Assembly: GCA_003353955.1 (NCBI GenBank)
Contig: PIVJ01000004.1
Location: 1,608 to 65,607, forward strand
Reading direction: 5' to 3'
DNA from: Bacteroidota bacterium
Lineage (GTDB): Bacteria; Bacteroidota; Bacteroidia; Bacteroidales; GCA-2711565
Length of the DNA stretch: 64,000 bases
The notes beneath the pieces are model-generated. The model made no database searches. It was not told the DNA's origin and saw only the letters and a program-made list of their open reading frames with translations. Below, piece by piece: positions 47,275-63,927 of the stretch (positions are counted from its first letter, which is position 1; each line of letters begins with the position of its first letter). The translations under genes and the position numbers were made by a program.

Positions 47275-48432
47275 ATGGAAGATTTTCAAGGAAACCTCAG
47301 TACCAAGTTAGCCAATGTCGGAACTTCCATTTTTGCTGTAATGGGCCAACTTGCCAATGAATATAAGGCTATAAATTTATCACAAGGCTTTCCGGACTTT
47401 CCGGTATCCAAGGAATTAATCGATCGGATAAATCATTATATGAAAGAAGGACATAATCAATATGCACCCATGACCGGGGTTCCCAGCTTGCGAAATCAAA
47501 TTGCAAGAAAAGTTAAAGACATTTATGGGGTTGATTATAGTCCTGATTCAGAAATCAACATTACTGCCGGTGCTACCCAGGCCATTAATACGGTGATTCT
47601 CGCTTTGATTAAGGATAATGATGAAGCAATAATCTTTGAACCCGCCTATGATAGTTACGCTCCATCCATTCGGTTAAATGGTGGAATGGTAAAGTATGCA
47701 CAATTACGATTACCGGATTATTCTATCGATTGGAATGAATTATCCAAAATGATAACTCACCGAACAAAGCTTATCATTGTAAACACCCCCCATAATCCTA
47801 GCGGAAGCATTCTAAGTGCCGAAGACATGAAAAGACTGGAGGCACTTACAAACAATACCGACATCCTTATTCTAAGCGATGAAGTTTATGAACACCTCAT
47901 TTACGATGGACTTACACATGAGAGTGCTTGCAAATTCCCAGGATTAGCAAGTAGGAGTTTTGTCATTGGCTCCTTTGGTAAAACATTTCACGCAACAGGT
48001 TGGAAAATTGGGTTTGTTTTGGCTCCTAAAAAACTTATGACCGAATTTAGAAAGGCACACCAGTTTGTGGTTTATGCCGTTAATACACCCATTCAGTTTG
48101 CACTGGCCGACTTCTTGGAAAACAAAAAAAATTACAGTAAACTTCATAAATTCTATCAGCAAAAAAGAAACTATTTTGTTCAGAAGATGCAACAATCAAG
48201 GTTTGAAATTGTCCCCTCATTTGGCACCTATTTTCAGGTATTGGATTATAGCAATATTTCTGATGAAACAGAAATGGATTTTGCAACTCGTCTAATTAAA
48301 GAACATGGTATCGCGTCAATCCCTATTTCTCCATTTTATCACAATGGTTTTGAATCAAAAAGATTAAGATTTTGTTTTGCGAAGAAAAAAGAAACCCTTG
48401 ATAAAGCTGCAAAAATATTATGCAAAATTTGA
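47275..48432 (+). CDS. PLP-dependent aminotransferase, YbdL / glutamine-transaminase-like
   Basis: Class I fold with NTPHNPSG and PLP-lysine context SFGKTFHATGWKIGF. Confidence 0.85.
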   Translation: MEDFQGNLSTKLANVGTSIFAVMGQLANEYKAINLSQGFPDFPVSKELIDRINHYMKEGHNQYAPMTGVPSLRNQIARKVKDIYGVDYSPDSEINITAGATQAINTVILALIKDNDEAIIFEPAYDSYAPSIRLNGGMVKYAQLRLPDYSIDWNELSKMITHRTKLIIVNTPHNPSGSILSAEDMKRLEALTNNTDILILSDEVYEHLIYDGLTHESACKFPGLASRSFVIGSFGKTFHATGWKIGFVLAPKKLMTEFRKAHQFVVYAVNTPIQFALADFLENKKNYSKLHKFYQQKRNYFVQKMQQSRFEIVPSFGTYFQVLDYSNISDETEMDFATRLIKEHGIASIPISPFYHNGFESKRLRFCFAKKKETLDKAAKILCKI

Positions 48433-49211
48433 AAGTAACCATCATACAATCTGATTTATTTTGGGAAGATACCCATGGAAATCTGGCGAAGTTTGATAAT
48501 CATATTAATAGCATGGGTGAACTAACGGATTTAATTGTTTTACCTGAAGTTTTTAATACAGGATTTCCAGTTGATCCGTATAAATTTGCCGAAACACTTG
48601 ATGGCTCAACTATGAATTGGCTCAAAGAAAAAGCCATTGAAAAAAACTGTACCATAACTGGAAGCCTCTTGATAAAAGACAAAGGGAATTTTTATAATAC
48701 GTTGATTTGGATGAGTCCCAATGGTCACTATTCAAACTATGCAAAAAGGCATGTATTTCATTTGGGTGATGAAGCTGAAAACATCAAGCCCGGAAGCGAA
48801 AGTATAACCCCAAGCCTTAAAGCTTGGAACATTCGTCCGTTAATTTGTTACGACCTCCGCTTTCCGGTATGGAGTAAGAATACCTATCAAAACAATCGTT
48901 TTGAGTACGACTTACTTATTTACGTGGCTAACTGGCCGGCTGCCAGAAACTATCCCTGGAAACAATTATTAATAGCCCGTGCTATCGAAAATCAGGCTTT
49001 TGTGATCGGGGTGAATCGAATAGGAATTGACGGGTTAGATAACAAATACTCAGGAGATACCATGGTGATTGACCCCAAAGGTCGAATCATATCTGATGTT
49101 GAATCTGATGTGGAATCCGTTCAGACCTTTGAATTGTCCTATACAACATTAAAAAATTTCAGGGATAAATTTAATGTTGGGTCTGACTGGGATCAATTTA
49201 CGATTCAATAA
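48420..49211 (+). CDS. nitrilase-superfamily amidohydrolase, omega-amidase (YafV/Nit2-like)
   Basis: Glu-Lys-Cys triad contexts LPEVFNTGF, YAKRHVF and LICYDLRFP. 13-nt overlap with the upstream aminotransferase. Confidence 0.85.
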   Translation: MQNLKVTIIQSDLFWEDTHGNLAKFDNHINSMGELTDLIVLPEVFNTGFPVDPYKFAETLDGSTMNWLKEKAIEKNCTITGSLLIKDKGNFYNTLIWMSPNGHYSNYAKRHVFHLGDEAENIKPGSESITPSLKAWNIRPLICYDLRFPVWSKNTYQNNRFEYDLLIYVANWPAARNYPWKQLLIARAIENQAFVIGVNRIGIDGLDNKYSGDTMVIDPKGRIISDVESDVESVQTFELSYTTLKNFRDKFNVGSDWDQFTIQ

Positions 49212-49405
49212 AATAGGTTAAATACCGAAAGCATTTATAAATTATGGATCACATCTTGTTCGGATTTCTTTGTAAAAAATAAATTTTAGCAGCCAAAGGG
49301 AGCCTCAATTTGAAATTTTAAATATTGTCTGTGTATATTTACATCAAAATATTATTTCGGTTTAATGATAATATTTTAAATTCGCAGCCTTAATAATCCG
49401 CAGTA

Positions 49406-50746
49406 ATGAATATTGTAATAGCAGGAGATGGTGAAGTAGGTTTGTATCTGGCTAAAGAACTTGCCGATGAAAATCATAATATTACCATTGTCGACCCCCA
49501 TGAAGATTTATTGAAAATGGTAGAATCACATACCGATTTAATGACAATTACCGGTGATTCAACTTCCATTTCAGTACTTAACCGCGCCAATATTAAAAAG
49601 ACAGATTTATTGATTTCAGTGGTTCATAATGAGAAAACAAATATTATCACGGCAATATTGGCTAAAAAGCTCGGAGCAAAAAAAACAATAGCCAGGGTTA
49701 ACAGTCTTGAAAATATAACCAAAGAAAACCGAGAGATTTATGAAAGTTTAGGGATTGATGCCTTGATCTGCCCTGAAGAAATAGCTGCCGAAGAAATTGT
49801 AAATTTATTATACCAAACCGCTGCTACAGAAATTATTAATTTCAATGGCGGAAGGCTTTCTTTATTTCTGATAAAGTTAGAGGACAATGCACCGGTTATG
49901 TATAAAACTTTAAATGAAATTACAACAGCACATCCTCATTTAAATTTTAGGGCAGTTGCTATTCATCGAAATTCCACCACCATTATCCCCAAGGGAGATG
50001 ATCAGTTTTTACCGAATGATTTATCCTATATAATTACAAAATCTGAAGGCGTTGAAGAGTTATTAAAACTGAGTGGAAAATCACTATTTGAAATTAAAAA
50101 TGTAATGGTTGTTGGTGGAGGGCGTGTAGGAAGAACCGCATGTAAACTATTGGAAAACGAAATTAATATTAAACTATTCGAGTCTGATAAAGAGAAATGC
50201 TTTAACCTTACCGATTATTTGAATGAAACACTTGTTATAAATGGTGATGCACGCGATATACAATTGTTGGAAGATGAAGATATTCGTGGAGTGGATGCTT
50301 TTATTGCCGTAACCAATAATTCAGAAACCAATATTTTAACCTGCTTACATGCTCGTAAATTTGGCGTAAAAAAAACAATTGCCTTAGTTGAAAACATAGA
50401 TTATATCGACATATCTCAAAATATAGGAATTGATACCATCATTAATAAAAAGTTAATTACTGCAAGCTATATTGTAAGATTTACGATGGGCTCTGAGATA
50501 GCATCCCTGAAATGTTTAAGTGGTGTTGATGCAGAGGTAATTGAGCTGGTTGCAAAACCTGCCTCAGCGATTACACAAAATCGAATAAAGGATTTGAAAA
50601 TTCCTGAAGGAGCCCTGATCGGGGGCGTATGTAGAGGTGAAGAAAGTTTTATTGCCACAGGCAATTTTCAAATCATTGAAGGTGATAAGGTTGTTGTATT
50701 TAGCTTGCCACAGGCCATCCATAAGATTGATGTTTTGTTTAACTGA
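49406..50746 (+). CDS. trkA: Trk system potassium uptake protein TrkA
   Basis: Two RCK/NAD-binding repeats (IAGDGEVG, VGGGRVG). Confidence 0.9.
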   Translation: MNIVIAGDGEVGLYLAKELADENHNITIVDPHEDLLKMVESHTDLMTITGDSTSISVLNRANIKKTDLLISVVHNEKTNIITAILAKKLGAKKTIARVNSLENITKENREIYESLGIDALICPEEIAAEEIVNLLYQTAATEIINFNGGRLSLFLIKLEDNAPVMYKTLNEITTAHPHLNFRAVAIHRNSTTIIPKGDDQFLPNDLSYIITKSEGVEELLKLSGKSLFEIKNVMVVGGGRVGRTACKLLENEINIKLFESDKEKCFNLTDYLNETLVINGDARDIQLLEDEDIRGVDAFIAVTNNSETNILTCLHARKFGVKKTIALVENIDYIDISQNIGIDTIINKKLITASYIVRFTMGSEIASLKCLSGVDAEVIELVAKPASAITQNRIKDLKIPEGALIGGVCRGEESFIATGNFQIIEGDKVVVFSLPQAIHKIDVLFN

Positions 50747-50816
50747 TTAATTTAATTGCTTTTGTGAATCTTAAAGCGAAATTTGTAATTTCGATCTATT
50801 ATTTTATTCCTGCTAC

Positions 50817-52280
50817 ATGTCAAAACGGGCTGATATTAATTACAAACTGGTATTACGAATTATAGGCTTCCTATTAATGGTTGAAGGAGGCTTTATGTTT
50901 TTGGGCATCCCATTTTCACTTTATTATTGTGGAAATACCTGCTTGTCATTGTTGTATTCAGGGCTTATTACTTGTGGAGCAGGAACCCTTCTTTTTGTAA
51001 CCTTTAAACAGAACTCAAATAAAAACATTGGCAAGAGAGAAGGTTATATTATTGTAACTTTTACATGGGTTGTTACTTCATTTTTTGGAATATTACCTTT
51101 CATATTAAGTGGAGTTATCCCGGATTTTACAGATGCATTTTTTGAAACAATCTCCGGATTTACAACAACGGGAGCAAGTATTTTAACCGATATTGAATCT
51201 GTTCCGAAAGGAATATTGTTTTGGCGGAGCACTACACATTGGATTGGTGGAATGGGTATTATTGTATTATCTGTTGCCATCTTACCGGTTCTCGGAATTG
51301 GTGGAATACAACTATTTGTTGCGGAAATGCCAGGCCCTACTCCGGATAAACTCCATCCCCGAATTACCCAAACCGCAAAACGATTGTGGGGAATTTATGT
51401 GCTTTTTACCTTTATTGAGGCAGGCTTGCTTATGCTTGGTGGAATGAATTTATTTGACGCCCTTTGTCATGCCTTTGGCACCATGGCAACAGGAGGTTTC
51501 TCAACACAAAATGATAGCATTGCAGGATTTTCCCCCTACATTCAATATGTGATAATTTTCTTTATGATCATTGCCGGAACAAATTTTACCCTGCACTATT
51601 TTGTATTGCACGGAAGATTAAAGAAGGTATGGCAAAATGAAGAATATCGTTACTACATTTATCTAATCGGGCTGGCCACAGTTATAATAACAGCCTCAAT
51701 AATTATCATTACGAATAAAGAATTTGAGCAATCATTTAGAGATTCACTATTTATGGTAGTATCCATTATTACTACCACCGGCTATGTAACTTCCGATTAC
51801 CTCCTTTGGCCGGGTATGTTGTGGTTTATTATATTCTTATTGATGTTTGTTGGAGGGAGTGCGGGTTCTACAGGCGGTGGAATGAAAGTTATCAGGCAGT
51901 TATTATTATTAAAAAATAGCGGTCAGGAATTAAAACGCTTATTACACCCACAAGCAATAATACCTGTTAGATTTAATCGTAAATCAGTATCGAGAGATAT
52001 TATCTTTAAGGTAATGGCCTTTTTCCTAATTTACATGATTGTTTTTGCGGCAGGCACCTTAGTTATGTCAATTTTAGGACTTGATTTTCAATCTGCAATT
52101 GGAGCAACTGCAGCATCTTTAGGTAATATTGGCCCTGGTATTGGTAGTGTGGGACCAGTTGAAAATTACGCAAATATCCCTGATTTTGGCAAATGGTTTC
52201 TTTCCTTTTTAATGTTATTGGGACGACTCGAATTATTTACAGTATTGATAATTTTTACCCCTGTTTTTTGGAAGAAATAA
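50817..52280 (+). CDS. trkH: Trk/Ktr potassium transporter membrane subunit TrkH
   Basis: Polytopic, with repeated selectivity-filter-like TTTG/TGGF/STGGG segments. Confidence 0.9.
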   Translation: MSKRADINYKLVLRIIGFLLMVEGGFMFLGIPFSLYYCGNTCLSLLYSGLITCGAGTLLFVTFKQNSNKNIGKREGYIIVTFTWVVTSFFGILPFILSGVIPDFTDAFFETISGFTTTGASILTDIESVPKGILFWRSTTHWIGGMGIIVLSVAILPVLGIGGIQLFVAEMPGPTPDKLHPRITQTAKRLWGIYVLFTFIEAGLLMLGGMNLFDALCHAFGTMATGGFSTQNDSIAGFSPYIQYVIIFFMIIAGTNFTLHYFVLHGRLKKVWQNEEYRYYIYLIGLATVIITASIIIITNKEFEQSFRDSLFMVVSIITTTGYVTSDYLLWPGMLWFIIFLLMFVGGSAGSTGGGMKVIRQLLLLKNSGQELKRLLHPQAIIPVRFNRKSVSRDIIFKVMAFFLIYMIVFAAGTLVMSILGLDFQSAIGATAASLGNIGPGIGSVGPVENYANIPDFGKWFLSFLMLLGRLELFTVLIIFTPVFWKK

Positions 52281-52366
52281 TTTTCCATTCTTCCTATTTC
52301 AAAATCATATTCAAAAAATACCCTATTTTTGATTTCATTCATTTCCCCTAATTTAAATCAAATATT

Positions 52367-53332
52367 TTGAGTTATTCTTTTAAAGTAACAAATAAGCAAT
52401 GGCTGGTAATCGTAAACCCTAATTCAGGAAAAAGAAAAGGTGAAAAAGATTGGGTTATCATTCATGACCTATTAAAGGCAAATAATTTCACCTTCAAAAG
52501 TATGTTTACCAAATATCGGGGGCATGCTACTGAAATTACAATCCAGATGCTCAAAGCCGGATATAAAAATATTATTGTGATTGGTGGTGATGGTACACTT
52601 AACGAAGTTATTAATGGTGTGTTAAGCCAAATAGAAACGCCAAGCAAAGATGTAAAAATTGGTATAATCCCAATTGGTACAGGCAATGATCTGGGGCGTA
52701 TGTATAATATTCCGGTCGATTATGAGAAATCAATTCAAATTATTAAGGAGGGAAAATCGTTCATTCAGGATGCCGGATTGGTAAGTTATTTGAAAAAGGA
52801 AAAGGAATACTCGAGATATTTTATAAATATGGCCGGGATGGGTTATGATGCGTTGGTGGCAAAAAAAACAAATCTCATGAAAGAAAAAGGTGGGGGTGGT
52901 CCCTTCGCATATCTGATAAATCTCTTTCTGGGATTAATCCAATATCAACATCCCTATCTTTCGATCGACATTGATGATAAAAACCTATTTCAGGGAAAAG
53001 CTTTTAGCCTAAGTATCGGTATTTGCAAATTTAATGGGGGTGGAATGATGCAATTACCTTTCGCCGTTCCAAACAATGGATTATTTGATATTACCTTAAT
53101 TCAAAAGGTATCAAAACTAAAAGTGATTGCTAATATTAAAAATCTATTTGATGGCTCATTTGTTAATATGCCGGAAGTAGAAACATTTACCGGTAAGAGA
53201 ATTAACATTCAGTCAAAACCGGCAAAAACAGCTTATCTCGAAACTGATGGAGAATCTCTTGGACACTCACCCTTTATATTCACTATCTTACCCAAGAGTA
53301 TTCAGATAATATCAGGGAATCCGGACTACTAA
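52367..53332 (+). CDS. diacylglycerol-kinase-family lipid kinase (YegS/BmrU type)
   Basis: VIVNPNSGKRKG, GGDGTLNEV and GTGNDL motifs. TTG start. Confidence 0.85.
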   Translation: MSYSFKVTNKQWLVIVNPNSGKRKGEKDWVIIHDLLKANNFTFKSMFTKYRGHATEITIQMLKAGYKNIIVIGGDGTLNEVINGVLSQIETPSKDVKIGIIPIGTGNDLGRMYNIPVDYEKSIQIIKEGKSFIQDAGLVSYLKKEKEYSRYFINMAGMGYDALVAKKTNLMKEKGGGGPFAYLINLFLGLIQYQHPYLSIDIDDKNLFQGKAFSLSIGICKFNGGGMMQLPFAVPNNGLFDITLIQKVSKLKVIANIKNLFDGSFVNMPEVETFTGKRINIQSKPAKTAYLETDGESLGHSPFIFTILPKSIQIISGNPDY

Positions 53333-53333
53333 T

Positions 53334-55109
53334 TTAATCAGCTGGTTTTTCTTTCCATTGCCCGTATAATTTAATTAGAGAGATCAGTTCTTTCACGGCA
53401 TCTTGTTCAACTACTCCATGATTTATAAGCTTACGTCCTTTATATAAGCTTACCTTACCATCTCCCGATCCAACATACCCGTAATGTGCGTCTGCCATTT
53501 CTCCCGGGCCGTTAACAATACAGCCCATTACTGCAATTTTTAATCCAATTAAATGACTGGTTGCGATTTTGACTTCTTCAAAGGCTTTCTGAATATTAAA
53601 CTTGGTTCTTCCGCAAGATGGGCAGGCAATATATTCAGTTGCTGTTATTCGGGATCCACTCGACTGTAATACCCTAAAACACAAATCTGTTGTTTGATCT
53701 GAAAAAGTTGGATTATTTATCCAAAGCCCATCAATTAAACCATCTACCAATAACGACCCAACATCGGCAGATAATAGAATTAGATAATCATCAAAATTCG
53801 AACTGCGATAATCCCTTTTTAAAACTATAGGATTTTTAACGCCACATTCAATGATTTCTGAAATGCATTTTTTAATTGCTGAAATATTTTGATCTGCAAC
53901 AGATTTAAGCATGATCACATCGTTTGACTTAAGTTCTTTCAGCATATCCTTTTTAAAATCATTATCAGCAGAAATAATAAATTCAATAAAAGCGATTGTT
54001 TCTGAGGTACTAAGTTTTCTCTTTTCGGCATTAATTAAAGCGTAACTTTTTTCATCTTCTTGCAAGCGATTCTTAAATTGATCGAAAACAAAATCAGCTT
54101 TTGGATTTGCATTGGTTGAAATAACAACCGGGGGCTTATCGCCACCAATTCCAACTAATTCAGTTGTTTCTCTTTTTCTGTACTCAAAAGGATTGATGTT
54201 TGAAAAGTAGGGGTTTTTAGTTCTAATTGCCCTATTGGCAGGTGTTAGGGTTTTCACAATAGAGTTGGCAAAATAAATTTCATTCTCGGGCTCTTCTGTT
54301 AGGGAAACGCGGATCGTATCGCCAATTCCCTCCTTGAGTAACGTACCAATTCCGGCAGATGATTTTATCCTTCCATCAAGCCCATTTCCAGCTTCGGTTA
54401 CACCTAAATGGAGCGGATAATCCATTTGTTCTTCCAGCATACGATTTACCAATAATCGATAAGCCGGAACCATAATTTTAAAATTACTCGATTTCATGGA
54501 AAGTACCAGGTTGTGAAACTGTAAGCCTTCACAGATTTTTAGAAACTCCATTGCTGATTCAACCATTCCAAGTGGTGTATTCCCATATTTATTAATCATG
54601 CGTCTGGATAATGAACCATGATTAACCCCAACTCTAATTACTGTTCCGTACTCTTTACAAATTTTAATTAAAGGAGAAATCTTTTCGGAAATCTTTTCAG
54701 TTTCCAGCCTATTCTCTTTCTCGGTAAGTTTAATATTGTTACCGGATTTTACACCCGTATAATTACCGGGATTTATTCTTATCTTTTCAACAATTCTTGC
54801 GGCTTTTTCGGCAGCTTTGGGATTAAAATGAATATCGGCAATTAGGGGCGTATTATACCCCTGACTTTTTAAAGCATTTTTTATTACAGATAAAGTTTCA
54901 ACCTCCTTTAGTCCCGGACTGGTAATACGGACTAATTCGGCACCTGCCTCGATCATTCTTACCGCTTGAGAAACCGTTGCTTTTGTGTCAAGTGTATTGG
55001 TTGTAGTCATCGACTGAATACGAATGGGATTTAATCCCCCCAGAGTGAGATGACCAACTTGAATCGTTCGGGAAATAAAAGGCTGATTAAATAACTTATC
55101 ATCTTGCAT
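53334..55109 (-). CDS. ispG: 4-hydroxy-3-methylbut-2-en-1-yl diphosphate synthase, long (insert-containing) form
   Basis: TIM-barrel N-domain, an approximately 250-aa insert, and a C-terminal Fe-S domain with CPSCGRT and MGCIVNGPGE. Confidence 0.9.
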   Translation of the reverse strand: MQDDKLFNQPFISRTIQVGHLTLGGLNPIRIQSMTTTNTLDTKATVSQAVRMIEAGAELVRITSPGLKEVETLSVIKNALKSQGYNTPLIADIHFNPKAAEKAARIVEKIRINPGNYTGVKSGNNIKLTEKENRLETEKISEKISPLIKICKEYGTVIRVGVNHGSLSRRMINKYGNTPLGMVESAMEFLKICEGLQFHNLVLSMKSSNFKIMVPAYRLLVNRMLEEQMDYPLHLGVTEAGNGLDGRIKSSAGIGTLLKEGIGDTIRVSLTEEPENEIYFANSIVKTLTPANRAIRTKNPYFSNINPFEYRKRETTELVGIGGDKPPVVISTNANPKADFVFDQFKNRLQEDEKSYALINAEKRKLSTSETIAFIEFIISADNDFKKDMLKELKSNDVIMLKSVADQNISAIKKCISEIIECGVKNPIVLKRDYRSSNFDDYLILLSADVGSLLVDGLIDGLWINNPTFSDQTTDLCFRVLQSSGSRITATEYIACPSCGRTKFNIQKAFEEVKIATSHLIGLKIAVMGCIVNGPGEMADAHYGYVGSGDGKVSLYKGRKLINHGVVEQDAVKELISLIKLYGQWKEKPAD

Positions 55110-55164: not shown

Positions 55165-55860
55165 TTAGCCGGTTTGACTAACCTTTTGTAAGGCTGGAAA
55201 ATCAAGAATTTCAAAATCATTCCCTTCACATTTTATAACTTTCGATACTTTAAATTCTTTAATGACACGAATAGCACTCTCTTTAGACATTGCGGCTAAA
55301 TCTGCAATATCCTGACGGCTGATGTTTACAGTAAATTTATCATTTTCATAAACCTCTTTTGATAAATAAATCAGGACATCAGCAATTCTTCCAGGCATTT
55401 GCTTTTGGGTGAGATTAATTAGTTTTTCAAAATATCGAATACCTCGCTGGTTAACCCATTTTATGAATTCAATTGAAAAAACGCTATTTTGCTTAACTAC
55501 CTCCATAATAGCTTCCACCTCAATAAAACATGCAGTAACATCACTAATAGCATTAACTGAATAGTAATGGCGAAAATCATTGAACATACCAGGCCCTGCA
55601 AGCATTTCGGTTGGGCGCAATATTTTGAGTAGCAAATTCTTTTTGTTGACACCCTCAATATAAACTTTTGCAAAACCAGTAGTAACACAAGCAATATGTG
55701 TTAAGGCTCCGCCCTGCTTAAAAATAGTTTCTCCTCGATTGAATTTTACCTCATGTCGATGTTCGTTGATATAGTTAGTTTCTTCATCGGTTAAAAATTG
55801 AAAAAGATTCTGTTTCTTAGAACAATTCTGACAAAATACTGCATTAACAAATAAAGGCAT
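55165..55860 (-). CDS. Crp/Fnr-family transcriptional regulator with N-terminal CxxC
   Basis: cNMP-binding-like beta-roll and a C-terminal HTH (SRQDIADLAAMSKESAIRVIKEF). Cys at positions 10, 13, 58 and 111. Divergent from the cytochrome locus. Confidence 0.85.
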   Translation of the reverse strand: MPLFVNAVFCQNCSKKQNLFQFLTDEETNYINEHRHEVKFNRGETIFKQGGALTHIACVTTGFAKVYIEGVNKKNLLLKILRPTEMLAGPGMFNDFRHYYSVNAISDVTACFIEVEAIMEVVKQNSVFSIEFIKWVNQRGIRYFEKLINLTQKQMPGRIADVLIYLSKEVYENDKFTVNISRQDIADLAAMSKESAIRVIKEFKVSKVIKCEGNDFEILDFPALQKVSQTG

Positions 55861-56027: not shown

Positions 56028-56041
56028 TTGATAAATGTCAA
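56028..56041. promoter_or_regulatory. FNR/CRP-type box TTGATaaatGTCAA
   Basis: Perfect TTGA-N6-TCAA core and 9/10 match to TTGAT-N4-ATCAA. Lies in the 316-bp divergent region between the regulator and the first cytochrome gene. Confidence 0.5.
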
Positions 56042-56176: not shown

Positions 56177-57253
56177 ATGAAAAAATTTACATTTTTAACT
56201 TTATTGACTGCGGTTTTTCTGTTTTCAATCGTTACGATGTCTAGTTGTACCAAAGAAGGAGCAGCCGGAACAGACGGTGTTGATGGACCAGCCGGTCCTC
56301 AGGGTATAGCCGGGGAAGCAGGGATTGATGGAACAGACGGTACTGCTGGATGTATTTTATGTCACACTGGTGGAGAAGAACAAGGTATGTTTGCTCAAAC
56401 TAACCAATGGGAGGCTTCAGTTCATGCTACTGGTGGTAATTTTGAAAGAAATACTAGCGATTGTGGAACTTGTCATACCAGTCAGGGGTTTCTTGCTAAC
56501 TTAGCAGGAACGTATGACGAGAATGTGGAAAATCCAAATCCAATTAACTGCTACACATGCCACAACATTCACAAAACATTTACTCCTGCTGACCTTGGAC
56601 TTACTGCTTCAGCAGGTGTTGAGTTAATGATTAATGGTGATGTCATTGATTTTGGAAAAGGTAATTTATGCGCCGTATGTCACCAACCAAGACTACCCGA
56701 TCCAATGCCAGTTGTTGGTGGTGGAGATTTTACAATTAGTTCTTCGTATTGGGGAGGTCACCATGGCCCTCAAACAACTACATTTGCTGGTACTGGGCTA
56801 TTCGAATTTAGTGGTACGGCATCACTTGGAACAAATGCGCACTATTTAACTATTGAAGATGGATGTATTACTTGCCATATGGCAGAAGCTGATGGCGTTG
56901 CCACAGGAGGGCATACTTTTAACGTAGCTGAACAAGATGCAGACGGTGTTTCCGGAGATCTCTCTCTGGCAGGTTGTATGGAATGTCACACTGACGAAGA
57001 TGTACTTGAAGCAGACATTGAAACATTACAGGATGATGTTCATCATTTATTAGCTGAACTTGCATTATTATTAAATGAGGAAGGAATTCTTGCTGTTGGT
57101 GATCATCAACCAACTCCAGGAACTTACAGTTCTGATGTTGCAGCTGCATTCTTAAACTGGGCTATGCTTGAAGAAGACAGAAGTTTTGGAGTACATAACC
57201 CTAAATATGTGATTGGTGTTTTGGAAAATACAATTGCAGAGCTTACGCCGTAA
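56177..57253 (+). CDS. lipoprotein hexahaem c-type cytochrome with N-terminal collagen-like (Gly-X-Y)10 segment
   Basis: ATG at 56177 gives MKKFTFLTLL..VTMSSC (lipobox). Haem motifs are CILCH, CGTCH, CYTCH, CAVCH, CITCH and CMECH. The C-terminal EDRSFGVHNPKY helix region resembles NrfA/HAO-class multihaem folds. Confidence 0.85.
   Translation: MKKFTFLTLLTAVFLFSIVTMSSCTKEGAAGTDGVDGPAGPQGIAGEAGIDGTDGTAGCILCHTGGEEQGMFAQTNQWEASVHATGGNFERNTSDCGTCHTSQGFLANLAGTYDENVENPNPINCYTCHNIHKTFTPADLGLTASAGVELMINGDVIDFGKGNLCAVCHQPRLPDPMPVVGGGDFTISSSYWGGHHGPQTTTFAGTGLFEFSGTASLGTNAHYLTIEDGCITCHMAEADGVATGGHTFNVAEQDADGVSGDLSLAGCMECHTDEDVLEADIETLQDDVHHLLAELALLLNEEGILAVGDHQPTPGTYSSDVAAAFLNWAMLEEDRSFGVHNPKYVIGVLENTIAELTP
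56258..56350 (+). repeat. collagen-like triplet repeat (coding)
   Basis: GAA GTD GVD GPA GPQ GIA GEA GID GTD GTA G: ten uninterrupted Gly-X-Y triplets ending directly at the first CxxCH. Confidence 0.85.
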
Positions 57254-57272: not shown

Positions 57273-57307
57273 AAAAAAGGCTTCAATAATTTTAGGAGCC
57301 TTTTTTT
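57273..57307 (+). terminator. rho-independent terminator after the hexahaem gene
   Basis: AAAAGGCT..AGCCTTTT stem followed by T7. Confidence 0.6.
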
Positions 57308-57424: not shown

Positions 57425-57835
57425 ATGAAAAAGACAATCTATATCTTGGGTCTGGCACTGATAGGAGTGATGTTTATTACAGGTTGCGAATATGAATTTA
57501 TTGCTCGCCCTTTGGTCATCATTGATCCAGTTGATCCAGATGATCCAGTTGACCCCAGTTTGATAAGTTTCGCTGGAGAAATCATACCTATTTTTACAAC
57601 TGGTAACCGGTGTACAAGTTGTCATGGAACAGGAGGGCAAGCACCCGTTTTAACAGCTACTCTGGCTTACAGCCAAATTATTTCACAGGGGCTTGTTAAT
57701 ACGGCAGATCCTTCTTCAAGCAAGCTCTATACGTATCCTAAAATAGGAGCTGGCACACATGTTTGGAAAACTTATTCTACCGATCAAGCCGCAGAGATAC
57801 TCCAATGGATAACAGAGGGCGCTAAAAACAATTAA
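57425..57835 (+). CDS. lipoprotein monohaem cytochrome c, PSCyt1 (Planctomycete cytochrome C)-like domain
   Basis: Lipobox ITGC, a DPVDPDDPVDP linker, then IIPIFTTGNRCTSCHG...ILQWITEGA, which follows the PSCyt1 pattern. Confidence 0.75.
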   Translation: MKKTIYILGLALIGVMFITGCEYEFIARPLVIIDPVDPDDPVDPSLISFAGEIIPIFTTGNRCTSCHGTGGQAPVLTATLAYSQIISQGLVNTADPSSSKLYTYPKIGAGTHVWKTYSTDQAAEILQWITEGAKNN

Positions 57836-57852: not shown

Positions 57853-58725
57853 ATGAAAAAACGTAACATAATTTTCGCATTCTTAATGTGTACAGGATTT
57901 TTATTCGCACAGGAAGAAGAGGCAAAACCTGAAAAAAAACCGGTTAGATCGCCCTTCGAAAGCGGTGTTTTAATCAATAATCAAACTGGAGTAATCCCAG
58001 ATGTCCGTACCCTTGAAATGATCATCGAGCATAACTTTGGCACCATTCAAAATGGAATTACTGATTTATATGGATTATACGCGCCATCAAACATCCGAAT
58101 TGGATTTAACTATAGTGTTACTGACAATATTATGATTGGATTTGGCACCACTAAATTTAGAAAACTTACTGACTTTAGATTTAAGTGGAGCTTTATAAAG
58201 CAATCCAGAGAAGGCGGTAGTCCGATTGCTGTTACTTATTATGGTAATATGGGTATTGACGGAAGAAATAAAGATGCTTTTGGTCTTCTATATATGTTTG
58301 AAGGTACTGATCGATTTTCATATTTCAACCAAATTATTATTGCCCGTAAATTTTGTGATGCTTTCTCATTTCAGGTAGCACCAAGTATTACTCATATTAA
58401 TAAGGTTGAGTTAACCGAAGAACATGATAGAGTTGCAATATCGTTTAGTGGTAGGTTAAAATTCAGCTATCAAGGATCAATTATTTTTAATTATGACGCA
58501 CCACTTAGTATTGAGGGAATTCAGGAGCACACAGAACTGGATTTTGAGTCCAAGCCAAGTTTGGCTTTTGGAGTAGAATTTGCCACTGGCACACACGCTT
58601 TCCAGATTTTTATGGGTACAGCGAACACACTTAGTCAGCAGTACAATATGATGACGAATGCTAATGACTGGAAAAATGGAGCCTTCTTTATCGGATTCAA
58701 CATTACCAGATTGTGGAATTTTTAA
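57853..58725 (+). CDS. outer-membrane beta-barrel protein, uncharacterised family
   Basis: Signal peptide (..FLFAQEE), alternating amphipathic beta-strand pattern and a C-terminal aromatic ..ITRLWNF. Starts 17 nt after the monohaem gene. Confidence 0.7.
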   Translation: MKKRNIIFAFLMCTGFLFAQEEEAKPEKKPVRSPFESGVLINNQTGVIPDVRTLEMIIEHNFGTIQNGITDLYGLYAPSNIRIGFNYSVTDNIMIGFGTTKFRKLTDFRFKWSFIKQSREGGSPIAVTYYGNMGIDGRNKDAFGLLYMFEGTDRFSYFNQIIIARKFCDAFSFQVAPSITHINKVELTEEHDRVAISFSGRLKFSYQGSIIFNYDAPLSIEGIQEHTELDFESKPSLAFGVEFATGTHAFQIFMGTANTLSQQYNMMTNANDWKNGAFFIGFNITRLWNF

Positions 58726-58884: not shown

Positions 58885-59856
58885 ATGAAAGAAAAACTAA
58901 AAACCATTATTAAAATGGGGTTGTTTTTGATTCCTCTATTATTTTTTTACCTAGTGCTCATAGCGCAAAATCAAGAAGCTACCAGCACATTTGAATATGC
59001 TGAAGATAATCAGCAATGTCTAAAATGTCACGGACATACCTACTACAACTACTATAACGACTGGCTTGAGAGAATGATCAGGGAACGAATGAACCCTTAT
59101 TTTATCGTAGATTCGGCGGAGTATTATGAAGCCAATCACCGAAACTTCGCATGCATAGATTGCCACACATCAGAATACGAAAATTTTCCACACAATGGAG
59201 AGTTGCGCATGGAACCAAAATATGCTTGTATGGATTGCCATGGGGGTGATGATACATACGCCAAATTTAATTTTGAACAAATTGAATCTGAATTCTATAA
59301 TAGTATACATTCCTCAAAACATTCTGATGATTTTACCTGCTGGATGTGTCATAACCCACACTCCTATAAAATCAGTGCAAGAACTAACAGACACTTAAAT
59401 AAAACTATTCAGTACGACAATAACATTTGTTTAAGTTGTCATGCGGATATATCAAAATATCAGCTATTGACAACCCTGGAAAATCCAAATATTTTGGAAA
59501 CCCATAGTTGGCTTCCGAATCAAGTATTGCATTTTCAAAGTGTACGTTGCATTGAGTGTCATACCGAAATCAATAATTATATTTTGGTAGCTCATAATGT
59601 TCAAGCAAAAGATAAGGCGGTACAGCGTTGTGTTGAATGCCATTCTCAAAATTCAATATTGAAAGAAACCCTTTATAAGTATCAAAATGAAGGCTTCTCA
59701 TATAGTGAAAACAGAGATCGTAGTTTGGAGATTCCTAAATTAATCGGTGGTAATCGCCGATATATGTTGAACCTCGCCAGTGTAATTATCTTTATATTAG
59801 TTTTGGGAGGCATAAGCATTCATGCCGTTTTGCGTATCATTTTAAAACCAAGGTAG
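58885..59856 (+). CDS. membrane-anchored heptahaem c-type cytochrome
   Basis: Haem motifs CLKCH, CIDCH, CMDCH, CWMCH, CLSCH, CIECH and CVECH, with N-terminal and C-terminal hydrophobic helices. Confidence 0.85.
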   Translation: MKEKLKTIIKMGLFLIPLLFFYLVLIAQNQEATSTFEYAEDNQQCLKCHGHTYYNYYNDWLERMIRERMNPYFIVDSAEYYEANHRNFACIDCHTSEYENFPHNGELRMEPKYACMDCHGGDDTYAKFNFEQIESEFYNSIHSSKHSDDFTCWMCHNPHSYKISARTNRHLNKTIQYDNNICLSCHADISKYQLLTTLENPNILETHSWLPNQVLHFQSVRCIECHTEINNYILVAHNVQAKDKAVQRCVECHSQNSILKETLYKYQNEGFSYSENRDRSLEIPKLIGGNRRYMLNLASVIIFILVLGGISIHAVLRIILKPR

Positions 59857-59857
59857 T

Positions 59858-60478
59858 ATGTCTGAGAAATTATATTTATATCCACAATGGATCCGGGTTT
59901 GGCATGGTATAAATGCTATATTATGCTTGATATTGATTTTAACCGGACTGAGTATGCAATATTCCAATCCGGATACGGTCGTAATTATTCGATTTGATAT
60001 TGCTGTTAACCTTCATAATATTTCTGGCGTTATGTTATCCCTGAGTTATTTTTTATTCCTTATTGGAAATATGATAAGGCCAAATGGAAGGCATTACAAA
60101 ATTGTTGTAAAAGGGTTTTTGAAAGACCTGATGAAACAATTCATCTATTATGCTTATGGTTTATTCAAGGGCGAAAAAACACCTTTCCCAATAACAAAAG
60201 AGTCTAAATTTAATCCACTTCAAAGATTCACCTATATCATACTCATGTATTTTTTAGTACCTGCCGTAATATTAAGTGGGTGGGTGTTGATTTTTCCTGA
60301 CTTTATACAGAACAATTTATTTGGACAAGAGAGTATTCATTTGTTTGATTTATTTCATTTAATGACAGGTTTTGTTATTTCAGTATTCATGATTATTCAT
60401 GTTTATTTCTGTACATTGGGAAAAACTGCACTGAGAAATTTTAGAAGCATCATAAACGGATATCACGAATCACAGTAA
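59858..60478 (+). CDS. cytochrome b membrane subunit (cytochrome b561 / FdnI / PhsC-like)
   Basis: WIRVWHGINAILCLILILTGL opening helix and conserved His in later helices. The ATG is 1 nt after the heptahaem stop. Confidence 0.75.
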   Translation: MSEKLYLYPQWIRVWHGINAILCLILILTGLSMQYSNPDTVVIIRFDIAVNLHNISGVMLSLSYFLFLIGNMIRPNGRHYKIVVKGFLKDLMKQFIYYAYGLFKGEKTPFPITKESKFNPLQRFTYIILMYFLVPAVILSGWVLIFPDFIQNNLFGQESIHLFDLFHLMTGFVISVFMIIHVYFCTLGKTALRNFRSIINGYHESQ

Positions 60479-60522
60479 ATCAAATTATTAAACTACGATA
60501 TATTAACTGTTTGGAATTGAAG

Positions 60523-63318
60523 ATGAAGACACGTGATCATTTTAAACTATTGGCATTTCTAGCCATTTATTTGATGCAAGGAATTAATACCTTAAATGCA
60601 CAGTCAAACGAAGATTGCATGATGTGCCATGAGGATCCTGATATGGTTATGGTAAGAAATGGGAAAGAAATTTCCGTATTTGTTAACTCTGATGTGTTAA
60701 GAAAATCCATTCATACAGACGCTGATTGTATAATGTGTCATGAAGATGTGAACACTGAAGAATATCTACACTCCGATGACAGCAAAAAACTTCAAAATGT
60801 AAACTGTGGCAATTGTCATACAAGTGCCGATATGGGATTTAACAAAGGTATCCATGGTTTGGCATTAAAGCAAAATGGGCCCTTTGCACCTAATTGTAAG
60901 GATTGTCATGGTAGTCATGATATTTTGTCGGGTAGGCAGCCTGAATCACGTACTTATAAAATGAACATCCCCTTATTATGTGGCAGTTGCCATAAAGAGG
61001 GAGCGCCGGTTGACAGAATGTATAATTTAACAGAGCAAAATATTCTTGAAAATTATAGTCAGGGTATCCATGGCAAGGGATTATATGAGAGTGGTTTGTT
61101 TGTTACCGCAACCTGTAACGACTGTCATGGGAATCACTTTATTTTACCTGCTTCTAGCAATTACTCCACTGTTTCTACCAATAGAATCGCAAGCACTTGT
61201 ATGAAGTGTCATGTGAGAATTGAAAAAACACATAAAAAGGTAATAAAAAGCGAACTATGGAAATCAGAGCCAGACGCAATACCCTCATGTACCGAATGTC
61301 ATCCACCACACAAAGTAGAATACCAGAAGATTAATGAAACCGTTTCAAATCAATCCTGCTTAAAATGTCACAATAAAGATATTTCGGCAGGCGAATATCT
61401 TTTAAAACAAACTGGTGATACCATTCGTTTCGACTTATCACATTTATCAAATTCTGTCCATTTTAATATTCAGTGTACTAAATGTCATACCGATGTATCG
61501 CCCAAATTACAGAGGCCATGTGAAACCGTTGAGCGTGTTGATTGTTCTAATTGCCACGTTGAAGTTTCAAATCAATATTTTGATAGCGGACATGGCCACG
61601 CATTTCTTGAAAATCTTAAGAATGCGCCCTATTGTACAAATTGTCATGATACGCATGCTACGAAATCAAAATTTGATCAAACTTCACCAACTTATAGAGG
61701 TAACATACCACAGCTTTGTGGTTCGTGTCATAAAGAAGACGGGCAAGCTAATATGCAAACGCAACTAAAAGAGGTAACTGCTTTTTCTGACTACTCGCAA
61801 AGTACACATGGAAAAGGATTGACTGATAAAGGCCTACTAATAAGTGCAGTTTGTACTGATTGTCATACAACGCATCATGAGTTAAAGGAGTCAGATCCTT
61901 TATCATCTGTGAATTCTCAGAATATGGCAGCTACTTGTGCGCAATGCCATACCAGTATTTATAACGACTATGTTTCGAGCGAACATTCTATTGCTGATAG
62001 TGATGGAATACTGATATATCCCACATGCTCAACATGCCATTCAGCACATCTTATTAGTGATATTCAAGGGGATCAATTTATGAATGAAATTACCAATCAA
62101 TGTGGTAGTTGCCATACAAAATTATCCGAGACCTATCAGGAAACGTATCACGGTAAAGCTTATTTATTGGGTGATATGGATGCGGCAAGATGTTCTGATT
62201 GCCATGGGGCTCATAAAATTTTAAAAGTTGATAATCCTGATTCTGAAGTTGGCTATAAAAATATTGTTCAAACCTGTAAACAATGTCATAGTAATGCAAC
62301 ACTTGCTTTTACGGGCTACTTAACGCACGCTACACATAATGACAATAAGGTTTTACATTGGGCATTTTGGGCAATGACCTCATTACTTATTTTTGTGTTT
62401 GGTTCTTTCGGACTCCACACACTGTTCTGGTTACCACAATCACTTAAGCAGAGAAAGAAAAAGAAACATGAGGCAGCTATCCCAGGCTCGAAAAAGTATT
62501 ATCGCCGATTTAATAAAAGGCAGCGATTTACACATCTAATGATTATTATAAGCTTTATTCTATTAGCTATAACTGGGATGACCTTAAAATTCGCACATAT
62601 GGATTGGGCAAATTGGATTGCCAAACTACTTGGGGGAGTTCATTCAGCAGGTAATATTCATAGAGTTGCTGCTGTTATTACCTTTGCATATTTTACTTTT
62701 CATTTGTTGACTTTGTTTCAACTTAAAAGTAAAGCCGGTGTGAGTACCAAGGAATTTCTGTTTGGGAAAAACTCTTTGATGTTCAGCATACAAGATATAA
62801 GAGATTTTACAGCTTCAATGAAGTGGTTTTTTGGCAAAGGACCTCGTCCCCACTATGGTCGTTGGACTTATTGGGAAAAATTTGATTATATGGCAGTATT
62901 TTGGGGAGTTGCTGTAATTGGGTTCTCCGGCTTAATATTATGGTTCCCTGAATTTTTCACATTGTTTTTCCCGGGATGGGTAATAAACGTAGCTCAAATT
63001 ATTCACAGTGATGAAGCATTATTGGCAACCGGATTTATATTCACAATTCATTTCTTTAATACACACCTAAGACCCGAATCTTTCCCAATGGACACTGTTA
63101 TTTTTACAGGACATGTTCCATTGGATGAATACAAAGAAGATAGAAAAGCCGAATATGATGAGCTTGTGAAATCAGGTAAATTAGATGATGTAGTAGTTGA
63201 AAAAGAATTTAGCAAAGCTTGGTTGAAAACGATAAAATTCTTTGGCTACTTATTCCTATCACTTGGTATAGCTATTGTTATTTTGATAATCTATTCTTTA
63301 CTTGTGGGCAAATATTAA
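60523..63318 (+). CDS. 19-haem c-type cytochrome fused to a C-terminal cytochrome b membrane domain
   Basis: Signal peptide from the ATG at 60523 and 19 CxxCH motifs counted up to about nt 62300. From about 62341 come TM helices with RFTHLMIIISFILLAITGM and IHSDEALLATGFIFTIHFFNTH, paralogous to 59858-60478. Confidence 0.85.
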   Translation: MKTRDHFKLLAFLAIYLMQGINTLNAQSNEDCMMCHEDPDMVMVRNGKEISVFVNSDVLRKSIHTDADCIMCHEDVNTEEYLHSDDSKKLQNVNCGNCHTSADMGFNKGIHGLALKQNGPFAPNCKDCHGSHDILSGRQPESRTYKMNIPLLCGSCHKEGAPVDRMYNLTEQNILENYSQGIHGKGLYESGLFVTATCNDCHGNHFILPASSNYSTVSTNRIASTCMKCHVRIEKTHKKVIKSELWKSEPDAIPSCTECHPPHKVEYQKINETVSNQSCLKCHNKDISAGEYLLKQTGDTIRFDLSHLSNSVHFNIQCTKCHTDVSPKLQRPCETVERVDCSNCHVEVSNQYFDSGHGHAFLENLKNAPYCTNCHDTHATKSKFDQTSPTYRGNIPQLCGSCHKEDGQANMQTQLKEVTAFSDYSQSTHGKGLTDKGLLISAVCTDCHTTHHELKESDPLSSVNSQNMAATCAQCHTSIYNDYVSSEHSIADSDGILIYPTCSTCHSAHLISDIQGDQFMNEITNQCGSCHTKLSETYQETYHGKAYLLGDMDAARCSDCHGAHKILKVDNPDSEVGYKNIVQTCKQCHSNATLAFTGYLTHATHNDNKVLHWAFWAMTSLLIFVFGSFGLHTLFWLPQSLKQRKKKKHEAAIPGSKKYYRRFNKRQRFTHLMIIISFILLAITGMTLKFAHMDWANWIAKLLGGVHSAGNIHRVAAVITFAYFTFHLLTLFQLKSKAGVSTKEFLFGKNSLMFSIQDIRDFTASMKWFFGKGPRPHYGRWTYWEKFDYMAVFWGVAVIGFSGLILWFPEFFTLFFPGWVINVAQIIHSDEALLATGFIFTIHFFNTHLRPESFPMDTVIFTGHVPLDEYKEDRKAEYDELVKSGKLDDVVVEKEFSKAWLKTIKFFGYLFLSLGIAIVILIIYSLLVGKY

Positions 63319-63438: not shown

Positions 63439-63927
63439 ATGATAATCAGAGGTTTAATAATCGTTTGTCTTGTTGTATTTCTAGGAAGTAATAACTTGGC
63501 AGCTCAAGATTTTGAGTATGTTGGATCTAAAAAATGTAAGATGTGTCATAATAAAGCTCCTAAGGGCGCACAGTACAAACAATGGGCTGAGTCATCACAC
63601 GCTAAGGCAATGGAGTCTCTGAGTGCGGAAGAAGCAAAAGATCCCACATGTTTAAAGTGTCATTCAACAGTTGGTCATGTTGATCCGGATCTTGTTGCAA
63701 CCTTAAAAGTTACAGAAGGTGTTTCATGTGAGTCTTGCCATGGGCCAGGTAGTAAATACTCTCCAAAGTCAGTTATGAGAGATCGTGCTAAATCTATTGC
63801 AAAAGGATTAATTCTTCCTATAGAAGAAGTTTGTATAACATGTCATAATGATGAGAGTCCACACTTTAAAGGTTTTGATTTTGCAGAATATGTTGAAAAA
63901 GTTTCACATCCTGACCCATCAAAATAA
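63439..63927 (+). CDS. periplasmic tetrahaem cytochrome c (cytochrome c554/NrfB-like small multihaem)
   Basis: Signal peptide; haem motifs CKMCH, CLKCH, CESCH and CITCH; W..S.H after the first haem motif. Confidence 0.8.
   Translation: MIIRGLIIVCLVVFLGSNNLAAQDFEYVGSKKCKMCHNKAPKGAQYKQWAESSHAKAMESLSAEEAKDPTCLKCHSTVGHVDPDLVATLKVTEGVSCESCHGPGSKYSPKSVMRDRAKSIAKGLILPIEEVCITCHNDESPHFKGFDFAEYVEKVSHPDPSK

Follow-up and report, generated by a model that had tools for sequence, protein, structure and literature searches.

A hexahaem lipoprotein cytochrome with a collagen-like stalk, encoded in a putative anaerobic respiratory gene cluster of Bacteroidota

The hexahaem lipoprotein gene

A stretch of 64,000 nucleotides (nt) from a Bacteroidota bacterium of the order Bacteroidales (GenBank assembly GCA_003353955.1, contig PIVJ01000004.1), hereafter called the window, contains at positions 56177–57253 (plus strand) an open reading frame whose translation is a 358-amino acid (aa) lipoprotein precursor. 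This hexahaem protein combines a lipid attachment site, an unbroken collagen-like run of Gly-X-Y triplets (the stalk) and six CxxCH haem-binding motifs. Features distinguished within the gene are listed below; structural features refer to an AlphaFold2 (AF2) model and its predicted local distance difference test score (pLDDT).

56177..56248 (+), lipoprotein signal peptide up to the lipobox Cys24 (translation); S, G or A precedes the Cys in all homologues
56249..56257 (+), T-K-E spacer after the lipidated Cys; C-TKE-G in 98/121 family members
56258..56350 (+), collagen-like run of ten Gly-X-Y triplets plus Gly58; register kept, triplet number variable, X rich in Thr/Pro/Ile/Glu, Y rich in Asp/Ala/Asn
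56351..56365 (+), haem motif 1, CILCH, which abuts the triplet run; invariant in the family alignment
56462..56476 (+), haem motif 2, CGTCH (translation, family alignment)
56549..56563 (+), haem motif 3, CYTCH (translation, family alignment)
56669..56683 (+), haem motif 4, CAVCH (translation, family alignment)
56759..56764 (+), His195-His196 pair (WGGHHGPQ); H195 in 77/77 and H196 in 68/77 sequences
56864..56878 (+), haem motif 5, CITCH, which aligns with the OcwA motif CVDCH
56975..56989 (+), haem motif 6, CMECH (translation, family alignment, profile match)
56996..57244 (+), three long C-terminal helices including EDRSFGVHNPKY (57173–57208); AF2 pLDDT >90, aligned with the OcwA/NrfA helix bundle and xDxSxGxHN

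The ATG at 56177 is the correct start, and the upstream GTG at 56117 is not used, because all homologues begin with MKK or MKR at the former position. The N-terminus reads MKKFTFLTLLTAVFLFSIVTMSS-C24-TKE-(GAA GTD GVD GPA GPQ GIA GEA GID GTD GTA)-G-CILCH, with a signal peptide of the typical lipoprotein type that ends in VTMSS-C24. The ten triplets (aa 28–57, nt 56258–56347) are followed by Gly58 and then directly by the first haem motif. The six CxxCH motifs are located at aa 59–63 (CILCH), 96–100 (CGTCH), 125–129 (CYTCH), 165–169 (CAVCH), 230–234 (CITCH) and 267–271 (CMECH), and the sequence EDRSFGVHNPKY occupies aa 333–344 in the C-terminal part. An earlier sequence-only reading of this DNA had reported the lipobox Cys24, C-TKE, the ten unbroken triplets leading into CILCH, the six CxxCH motifs and the C-terminal EDRSFGVHNPKY; the translation bears out all of these, and the end of the run that it gave (56350) comprises the triplets, to 56347, and Gly58.

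No other Gly-X-Y run of at least five triplets was found in the six reading frames of the 64-kb window (34% G+C), and no tandem DNA repeat was detected at the run with Tandem Repeats Finder. On these two grounds, and in view of the synonymous variation of the Gly codons in relatives, an origin of the run as a chance or low-complexity artefact was ruled out. The Pfam Collagen model (PF01391) matches aa 28–58 with an E-value of 5e-5 and 23.3 bits, which falls short of the gathering threshold of 27.2 bits owing to the small number of triplets; precomputed PF01391 matches exist for homologues with 11 triplets. There were also weak matches to the NCBIfam models SclB and Lcl, and no NCBIfam model matched the hexahaem protein at or above its own cut-off. 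A look-up of identical sequences gave no match for the window protein, so relatives were used instead. In the databases, the homologues are named "collagen-like protein", "hypothetical protein" or, wrongly, "nitrite reductase c552".

Conservation and composition of the Gly-X-Y run

A database search returned 584 relatives at E <= 1e-3, and the best 120 of them, with identity down to 42%, were examined. Conservation of the triplet register had been suggested as a check in the sequence-only reading, and in these sequences it was confirmed: all 120 contain the lipobox Cys, a short spacer, an in-register Gly-X-Y run and the first CxxCH, and indels comprise whole triplets. Triplet counts and composition were based on 121 sequences, in which the run consists of 5–11 triplets, with no interruption in 1004 triplets. 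Between the end of the run and the haem Cys there is one residue, rarely four, in the best homologues.

Residues in the X position are mainly Thr (27%), Pro (23%), Ile (11%), Ala (10%), Glu (10%) and Lys (7%), and those in Y mainly Asp (40%), Ala (30%), Asn (14%) and Pro (4%); Asp is essentially absent (0%) from X. This composition fits bacterial collagens, in which imino acids are favoured in X and Y is polar or charged. The stalk encoded in the window carries five acidic and no basic residues. The four triplets nearest the haem domain are the most conserved, with the consensus GEDGI[D/N]GxDGTA, and length variation is located in the membrane-proximal part of the aligned runs. In the closest relatives the indels are exactly 9 nt long and occur at two different places, and the Gly codons vary synonymously. 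Since the DNA is not repetitive, it is selection on the protein, and not slippery DNA, that preserves the periodicity.

To cover the wider family, a profile search of 1.84 billion representative proteins was performed, which yielded 660 representatives at E <= 1e-30. The best 146 new ones were classified as follows:

116/146, at least four triplets (up to 16)
9/146, two or three triplets
6/146, lipoproteins with a short acidic non-periodic linker
7/146, modules within multihaem proteins of 700–1950 aa, no triplets
8/146, fragments

Judging from these alignments, the triplet run is a conserved hallmark of the family that a minority of relatives is without. The sequence-only reading had envisaged haems held at a fixed distance from the membrane. 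This did not hold, since stalks of between 2 and 16 triplets occur and the linker of six lipoprotein-like relatives is non-periodic; stalk length is tunable by lineage.

In 1.14 Mb of related loci, no gene with such a run was found besides tandem paralogues of the same family. These second copies, present in some genomes, encode proteins of 383–476 aa with 5–6 haem motifs and 8–10 triplets (loci L023, 2838–2927; L046, 3541–3612; L076, 3853–3942), and they make heterotrimers a possibility. A doubled hexahaem module behind a Gly-X-Y stalk forms 13-haem lipoproteins (P0139 and P0184; 721–797 aa). There are also giant stalkless multihaem proteins of 1288–1946 aa with 16–24 haems, in which the hexahaem module occurs in up to four repeats (P0141, P0202, P0234, P0240 and P0265).

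Fold and family of the haem domain

The AF2 model, built from a 77-sequence alignment, has a pLDDT of 85 and a predicted template modelling score of 0.79. It is confident for aa 68–358, and the helices 274–302, 319–334 and 342–356 exceed a pLDDT of 90. In this single-chain model the stalk region (aa 24–67) has a pLDDT of about 50, as expected for a monomer prediction. When the family profile was compared with the Protein Data Bank (PDB), the best match was OcwA of Thermincola potens (6i5b; E = 8e-14, aa 221–348), in an alignment that spans haem motifs 5 and 6, the helical bundle and an xDxSxGxHN motif. A Foldseek search of the model also placed OcwA first (E = 1.4e-5, template modelling score 0.51). 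Pentahaem NrfA and the octahaem nitrite reductases were weaker both by profile (E = 1e-6 to 3e-3) and by fold; the match to NrfA had E = 1.3e-6, and the region shared with OcwA and NrfA is aa 210–348. The sequence-only reading had sensed an NrfA/HAO flavour in the C-terminal helices, and these matches (OcwA 8e-14, NrfA about 1e-6, predicted fold nearest to OcwA) agree with it.

A C-terminal haem pair and a three-helix bundle with xDxSxGxHN, which are traits of the OcwA/NrfA family, are present in the hexahaem protein. By the C-terminal half of its sequence and model it can be placed in this structural family. OcwA, a protein with nine haems, is the terminal reductase that a Gram-positive metal-reducing bacterium carries on its surface, and soluble shuttles, nitrite and hydroxylamine are among its further substrates; its C-terminus forms a three-helix bundle, and His-His motifs lie over two of its haems, which are five-coordinate (PMC6703420). 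The hexahaem protein shares with it the last two haem motifs, the bundle and xDxSxGxHN, and has a His-His pair that resembles its His-His motifs. It differs in that OcwA has nine haems, is not a lipoprotein, lacks Gly-X-Y triplets, resides in a Gram-positive cell wall and is a monomer/dimer, and significant sequence alignment is limited to aa 221–348.

With the pentahaem and octahaem nitrite reductases (1oah, 2ot4, 8rv0) the hexahaem protein has in common the C-terminal haem pair and the helical bundle; its N-terminal half is different, and a lipid anchor and a collagen-like stalk are added. Assignment as an NrfA nitrite reductase was ruled out: all six motifs are CxxCH, with no CxxCK, and PF02335 scored 16.3 bits against a cut-off of 24.1 bits. 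The automatic annotation as nitrite reductase c552 was found for one homologue. In the N-terminal half, the Pfam MtrC-MtrF_II-IV domain model matches aa 55–172 (E = 4.5e-11).

Six His residues outside the haem motifs (83, 132, 195, 222, 246 and 340) are invariant in the 77-sequence alignment and could provide six bis-His haems. One of them, His195 (77/77), is followed by His196 in 68/77 sequences, a pair that recalls the distal His-His pair of OcwA; the AF2 model is haem-free.

Triple helix or monomeric spacer

We regard a homotrimeric triple helix as the probable structure of the stalk, because its strict periodicity and the asymmetry between X and Y have no other known rationale. At 0.86 nm per triplet, the stalk would probably be about 8.6 nm long in the window protein, and about 4–9.5 nm over the range of 5–11 triplets. 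Short collagen peptides gain stability from N-terminal acylation, and trimers are known in the same cytochrome superfamily, namely HAO and MccA. Bacterial collagen-like segments, such as those of Scl1/Scl2, BclA, Lcl and Bucl8, are surface structures with similar triplets of the GKD, GQN and GxD types.

The hexahaem protein resembles the latter proteins in its unbroken Gly-X-Y run, Pro in X, polar or charged residues in Y, a variable triplet number (between strains in those proteins) and a stalk that displays a globular domain. Their stalks comprise tens of triplets, with adhesin or C1q-like heads and LPXTG or other anchors. We know of no redox domain on any of them, and the literature search gave no counter-example.

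Alternatively, the run could be an extended monomeric spacer without a triple helix, carrying a cytochrome that is a monomer or dimer like OcwA. We consider this unlikely. A monomeric spacer gives no reason for Gly at every third residue with zero exceptions in 1004 triplets, nor for Pro in X, Asp or Asn in Y and indels of whole triplets only, nor for the confinement of such runs, within 1.14 Mb of related loci, to this family and its tandem paralogues. It would, however, suit a run that is short, highly variable in length (down to two or three triplets), poor in imino acids and of negative net charge, and that is replaced in six relatives by acidic non-periodic linkers. The low pLDDT of aa 24–67 in the AF2 monomer is also compatible with it, as is the fact that the monohaem lipoprotein encoded next to the hexahaem gene has an ordinary tether, rich in Pro and Asp and of similar length.

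Two known cytochromes may be cited on the same side. OcwA is a mixture of monomers and dimers in solution (PMC6703420), and in PgcA, a lipoprotein of Geobacter sulfurreducens, the haem units are joined by simple Pro-Thr repeats (PMC5732950). Like the hexahaem protein, PgcA is a lipoprotein multihaem cytochrome with low-complexity repeat tethers, and it belongs to an extracellular electron-transfer pathway; it differs in having no Gly periodicity, three haems, proteolytic release and an unrelated fold family.

The gene cluster and its regulation

The hexahaem gene is the first of a cluster of cytochrome and membrane protein genes. Flanking features are the following:

55165..55860 (−), divergent CRP/FNR-family regulator, 231 aa; Pfam cNMP_binding 1e-13, HTH_Crp_2 1e-12; upstream in most related loci
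56028..56041 (+), FNR/CRP-type box TTGATAAATGTCAA, 149 nt 5′ of the start codon, between the regulator and the hexahaem gene; palindrome TTGAT-N4-ATCAA
57273..57306 (+), hairpin resembling a terminator, 3′ of the stop codon; stem of 12 bp between A and U tracts, dG −14.9 kcal/mol, z −3.1
57425..57835 (+), monohaem (CTSCH) lipoprotein, 136 aa; C-EYEF after the lipobox, Pro/Asp-rich linker; directly downstream in 65/72 loci
57853..58725 (+), predicted outer-membrane beta-barrel of family DUF5777; Pfam 6.6e-75, 12 strands in AF2
58885..59856 (+), seven-haem cytochrome with membrane helices at its N- and C-termini; downstream in 52/61 loci
59858..60478 (+), membrane cytochrome b (Ni_hydr_CYTB/PhsC-like), putative quinol-oxidising subunit; Pfam 1.4e-24, NCBIfam thiosulfate-reductase cytochrome b 1e-49, below cut-off
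60511..63318 (+), 935-aa fusion protein, 19 CxxCH motifs with a cytochrome b domain (Ni_hydr_CYTB) at the C-terminus; restricted to some of the related loci
63439..63927 (+), four-haem c554-like soluble cytochrome; Pfam Cytochrome_C554 1e-12

The order hexahaem gene – monohaem lipoprotein gene – DUF5777 gene is kept in 65 of the 72 loci with enough flanking DNA, and genes for the seven-haem cytochrome and cytochrome b come next in 52 of 61. This combination of a cytochrome b with a multihaem protein is the arrangement found in the CbcL-type quinol oxidoreductases of Geobacter. The 935-aa fusion is a much enlarged version of the same split pair (58885–60478). System II cytochrome c maturation genes (ResB/CcsA) often adjoin the cluster in relatives. 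In a few loci from outside the Bacteroidales the hexahaem gene stands alone, and in L014 and L041 neither a barrel gene nor a monohaem gene lies beside it.

The palindrome TTGAT-N4-ATCAA, with one mismatch at most, is located 105–182 nt upstream of the orthologue start in 57 of 74 loci, against a background of 0.06 per 320 nt. Conservation of this FNR-type box points to anaerobic induction. A scan for sigma-70 promoters was uninformative (49 sites vs 41 expected), and its consensus is not appropriate for Bacteroidota.

The sequence-only reading had assigned the hexahaem gene a terminator of its own and, on that basis, possible separate expression. The hairpin at 57273–57306 does exist: none of 200 shuffled sequences folded equally well, and the consensus terminator scan did not pick it up because its loop is 10 nt long. 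Separate expression is doubtful. Because the following two genes keep their order in 65/72 loci, the hairpin more likely attenuates transcription than isolates the hexahaem gene.

The monohaem lipoprotein and the DUF5777 barrel

Across related loci, C-EY[D/E]F is conserved just behind the lipobox of the monohaem lipoprotein, and the tether is rich in Pro and Asp. The protein matched no Pfam or NCBIfam family above cut-off, the Pfam cytochrome c matches being sub-threshold. In six related loci (e.g. L045, L049 and L052) the haem motif is CxxxxCH (CNAGVCH or CNMSGCH) in place of CxxCH. The length of the tether (30–45 residues from Cys to haem) tracks the distance from Cys to haem 1 in the hexahaem protein (20–38 residues) over 61 loci; the segments compared in the window are 57485–57613 and 56246–56353, respectively. 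Spearman's coefficient, a statistic that here ignores phylogeny, is 0.63 (p = 4e-8, n = 61), and 0.47 (p = 4e-4) without the clade of the window. This correlation suggests that both haem domains stand at matched heights on the same membrane face.

An AF2 model of the DUF5777 protein, built using database homologues, is a 12-strand barrel (pLDDT 87.7), and its nearest folds are 12–14-strand channels, i.e. COG4313, FapF, OmpG and NanC/KdgM. At least 1717 relatives were found at E <= 1e-10. Four His residues (H60, H181, H191 and H248), which were considered as possible haem ligands, and several Arg, Lys and Asp residues are invariant; from the sequence, we infer that His60 lies on the hydrophobic face of its own strand. 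Sequence searches of the PDB with the barrel and with the monohaem lipoprotein gave nothing useful. We found no description of DUF5777 in the literature, in a search whose coverage excluded most subscription journals, so that absence is not proof.

According to the model, the barrel is far too narrow to enclose a cytochrome in the manner of MtrB. A triple helix would not fit either; small solutes or one extended polypeptide chain could pass. The cluster resembles MtrCAB and the Pcc/Ext systems in joining an outer-membrane barrel, lipoprotein or periplasmic multihaem cytochromes and an inner-membrane quinol-oxidising cytochrome. The barrels of those systems have 20–26 strands around a decahaem protein, in contrast to the 12 strands predicted for DUF5777. 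A conduit of the Mtr/Pcc/Ext type was ruled out on the strand number and on the nearest folds. Published genome screens for porin-cytochrome systems demand at least 14–16 strands and homology to known porin families (PMC7399161). Such screens would miss this cluster because its barrel is small and lies outside these families.

Locus L001 (18685–20007, minus strand) encodes, beside ResB/CcsA, a further pair made up of a small protein of 138 aa and a DUF5777 protein, with no adjacent hexahaem gene. The monohaem lipoprotein and the barrel may thus constitute a module in their own right.

The position of a monohaem cytochrome gene next to that of a small outer-membrane barrel recalls Cyc2, a single polypeptide in which an N-terminal monohaem domain is fused to a barrel of about 16 strands. 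A Cyc2-type fusion was ruled out by the gene layout, in which the monohaem lipoprotein (57425–57835) and the barrel (57853–58725) are encoded separately. Electrons could still flow inwards in a split-Cyc2 fashion, from Fe(II) oxidation or by uptake from minerals or partner cells, with the hexahaem lipoprotein as collector; pairs that occur apart from the hexahaem gene, such as that of L001, would suit such a scheme. We consider it very unlikely: the barrel, encoded separately, has 12 strands, genes for an oxidase or for reverse electron flow were not seen in the cluster, and both the FNR-type box and the partners resembling a cytochrome b/multihaem quinol dehydrogenase fit outward anaerobic respiration.

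Membrane face of the hexahaem protein

To our knowledge, all bacterial collagen-like stalks described so far are surface structures, and exposure of the hexahaem protein on the cell surface is slightly favoured. A stalk would raise the haems above the lipopolysaccharide layer, and a trimer of about 120 kDa hanging 4–9 nm into the periplasm would collide with peptidoglycan. A signal peptide with a lipobox Cys, as looked for in surface-exposed lipoproteins of Bacteroidota, is present, and S, G or A precedes the Cys in every homologue. Residues +2 to +5 after the lipidated Cys are T-K-E-G, with further Asp at +9 and +12 inside the triplets. The conserved K-E with downstream Asp resembles a surface-export signal, of which only the first two residues of K-(D/E)2 are matched. 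Known lipoprotein export signals are K-(D/E)2 or Q-A-(D/E)2, and of the S-D-D-D-D type in Bacteroides; K-E alone was a "very weak" signal in a reporter study, with surface display in 16% of cells (PMC5080379).

The opposite arrangement, in which the protein faces the periplasm from the inner leaflet of the outer membrane, is doubtful. There it would act as a tethered relay or as an enzyme for a small soluble substrate delivered through the DUF5777 channel; candidate substrates are nitrite, hydroxylamine, a sulfur oxyanion, chelated Fe(III) or a redox shuttle. The incomplete export signal would agree with such a location, as would a 12-strand barrel like the small-solute channels COG4313, NanC/KdgM and OmpG, which is unable to house a cytochrome. 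Most relatives in the NrfA family are periplasmic enzymes, one homologue carries the automatic annotation nitrite reductase c552, and the His-His pair is like that over the substrate-binding haems of OcwA, which reduces nitrite and hydroxylamine.

For an enzyme of this kind, however, a CxxCK haem is lacking, only the C-terminal part is similar to NrfA, with Pfam Cytochrom_C552 below its cut-off, and the six invariant His would let all six haems be bis-His. The surface location of bacterial collagen-like stalks in general and the fit of a 120-kDa trimer beneath the outer membrane also speak against the periplasm, and in L014 and L041 the hexahaem gene lacks the adjacent barrel and monohaem genes.

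Proposed mechanism

The reading that we prefer, with a probability of roughly 0.5, is that of a collagen-stalked trimeric cytochrome, anchored in the outer membrane, of an anaerobic and probably extracellular electron-transfer chain. A six-haem domain of the OcwA/NrfA family would be held off the outer membrane by a short collagen-type segment; the clustering of three lipid anchors at the N-termini, together with self-association of the haem domain, would nucleate its triple helix. The trimer would present 18 haems, the three haem-1 groups standing beside the trimer axis at the end of the helix, and the number of triplets would set the distance between haems and membrane.

The hexahaem gene would be the first of an anaerobic respiratory cluster controlled by an FNR/CRP-type regulator. 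Electrons would pass from the quinol pool to the cytochrome b and the seven-haem membrane cytochrome, across the periplasm, and on to an outer-membrane module composed of the hexahaem lipoprotein, the co-tethered monohaem lipoprotein and the 12-strand barrel. By analogy with OcwA, which stands at the end of an extracellular electron-transfer chain, the hexahaem protein may be the terminal or the penultimate reductase in electron transfer to acceptors that are extracellular or permeate poorly, such as minerals of Fe(III) or Mn(IV), humics or shuttles.

Several points weigh against this reading. With 5–11 triplets, a low content of imino acids and a strongly negative net charge, the triple helix would be only marginally stable on its own. 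The haem domain does not strictly depend on it, given the nine relatives with two or three triplets and the six with a non-periodic linker, and OcwA, as noted above, is a monomer/dimer mixture. The export signal is incomplete (K-E-G in place of K-(D/E)2), and in the predicted arrangement of a 12-strand barrel and a single-haem partner no electron route across the outer membrane is evident. By analogy with the distal motif of OcwA, His195-His196 make an enzymatic role on small soluble substrates possible. Finally, all carriers found are uncultured organisms represented by metagenome-assembled genomes (MAGs). The alternatives set out above overlap with the proposed mechanism in parts, and the question of the stalk is independent of that of topology.

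A more far-reaching version, which we put forward only tentatively, is a true homotrimer with an 18-haem head on the surface of anaerobic Bacteroidales, forming the outward end of a hitherto unrecognised type of extracellular electron-transfer system, whose other parts would be the co-tethered monohaem lipoprotein, the 12-strand DUF5777 barrel and a cytochrome b/multihaem quinol oxidase. Stalk length would then be tuned by lineage to clear the surface layer of the cell, and the lipoprotein tethers may pass through the small barrel in the way that RcsF is threaded through OmpA/C/F. Such a trimer would be the first collagen-like redox protein.

Distribution and significance

The sequence-only reading knew of no characterised cytochrome of this build, and our literature search likewise gave no description of one. 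Nor did it yield a collagen-like c-type cytochrome or an account of this gene cluster; most subscription journals lay outside its coverage, and absence is not proof. Known parts, i.e. an OcwA-type cytochrome, a lipoprotein anchor and a bacterial collagen repeat, appear here in a combination that has not been described, within a widespread but unstudied gene cluster. If the stalk is a triple helix, collagen serves as a rigid, length-tunable spacer for a respiratory electron-transfer protein and imposes three-fold symmetry on an 18-haem assembly. This may be a new bacterial way of placing respiratory haems away from the membrane, and it offers a possible engineering part, a short rigid tether of genetically adjustable length for the display of redox proteins.

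A distribution scan of one genome per species detected relatives of the hexahaem gene in at least 334 species-level genomes. Taxonomy was taken from the best 80 of these 334, which are all MAGs and belong to Bacteroidales, Lentimicrobiaceae, Marinilabiliales, Draconibacterium, Chlorobiota (Ignavibacteria-like), Neomarinimicrobiota and Gemmatimonadota. The hexahaem gene marks a conserved, putatively FNR-controlled cytochrome cluster, whose carriers come from anoxic sediments, aquifers and reactors. They are mostly uncultured Bacteroidales, Lentimicrobiaceae, Marinilabiliales and Ignavibacteria-like bacteria, in which extracellular electron transfer has hardly been studied mechanistically. The metal- or shuttle-respiring capacity of these abundant fermenter-type lineages may be underestimated, as conduit screens would miss the cluster, which provides a testable handle on respiration in uncultured anaerobic Bacteroidales.

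The genes upstream of the cluster (47275–55109), encoding an aminotransferase, a CN-hydrolase, TrkA, TrkH, a YegS-type lipid kinase and IspG, are shared with loci L001 and L002. As this context is retained despite only 50–69% identity of the hexahaem proteins, the cluster looks vertically inherited in this Bacteroidales lineage, and not recently transferred.

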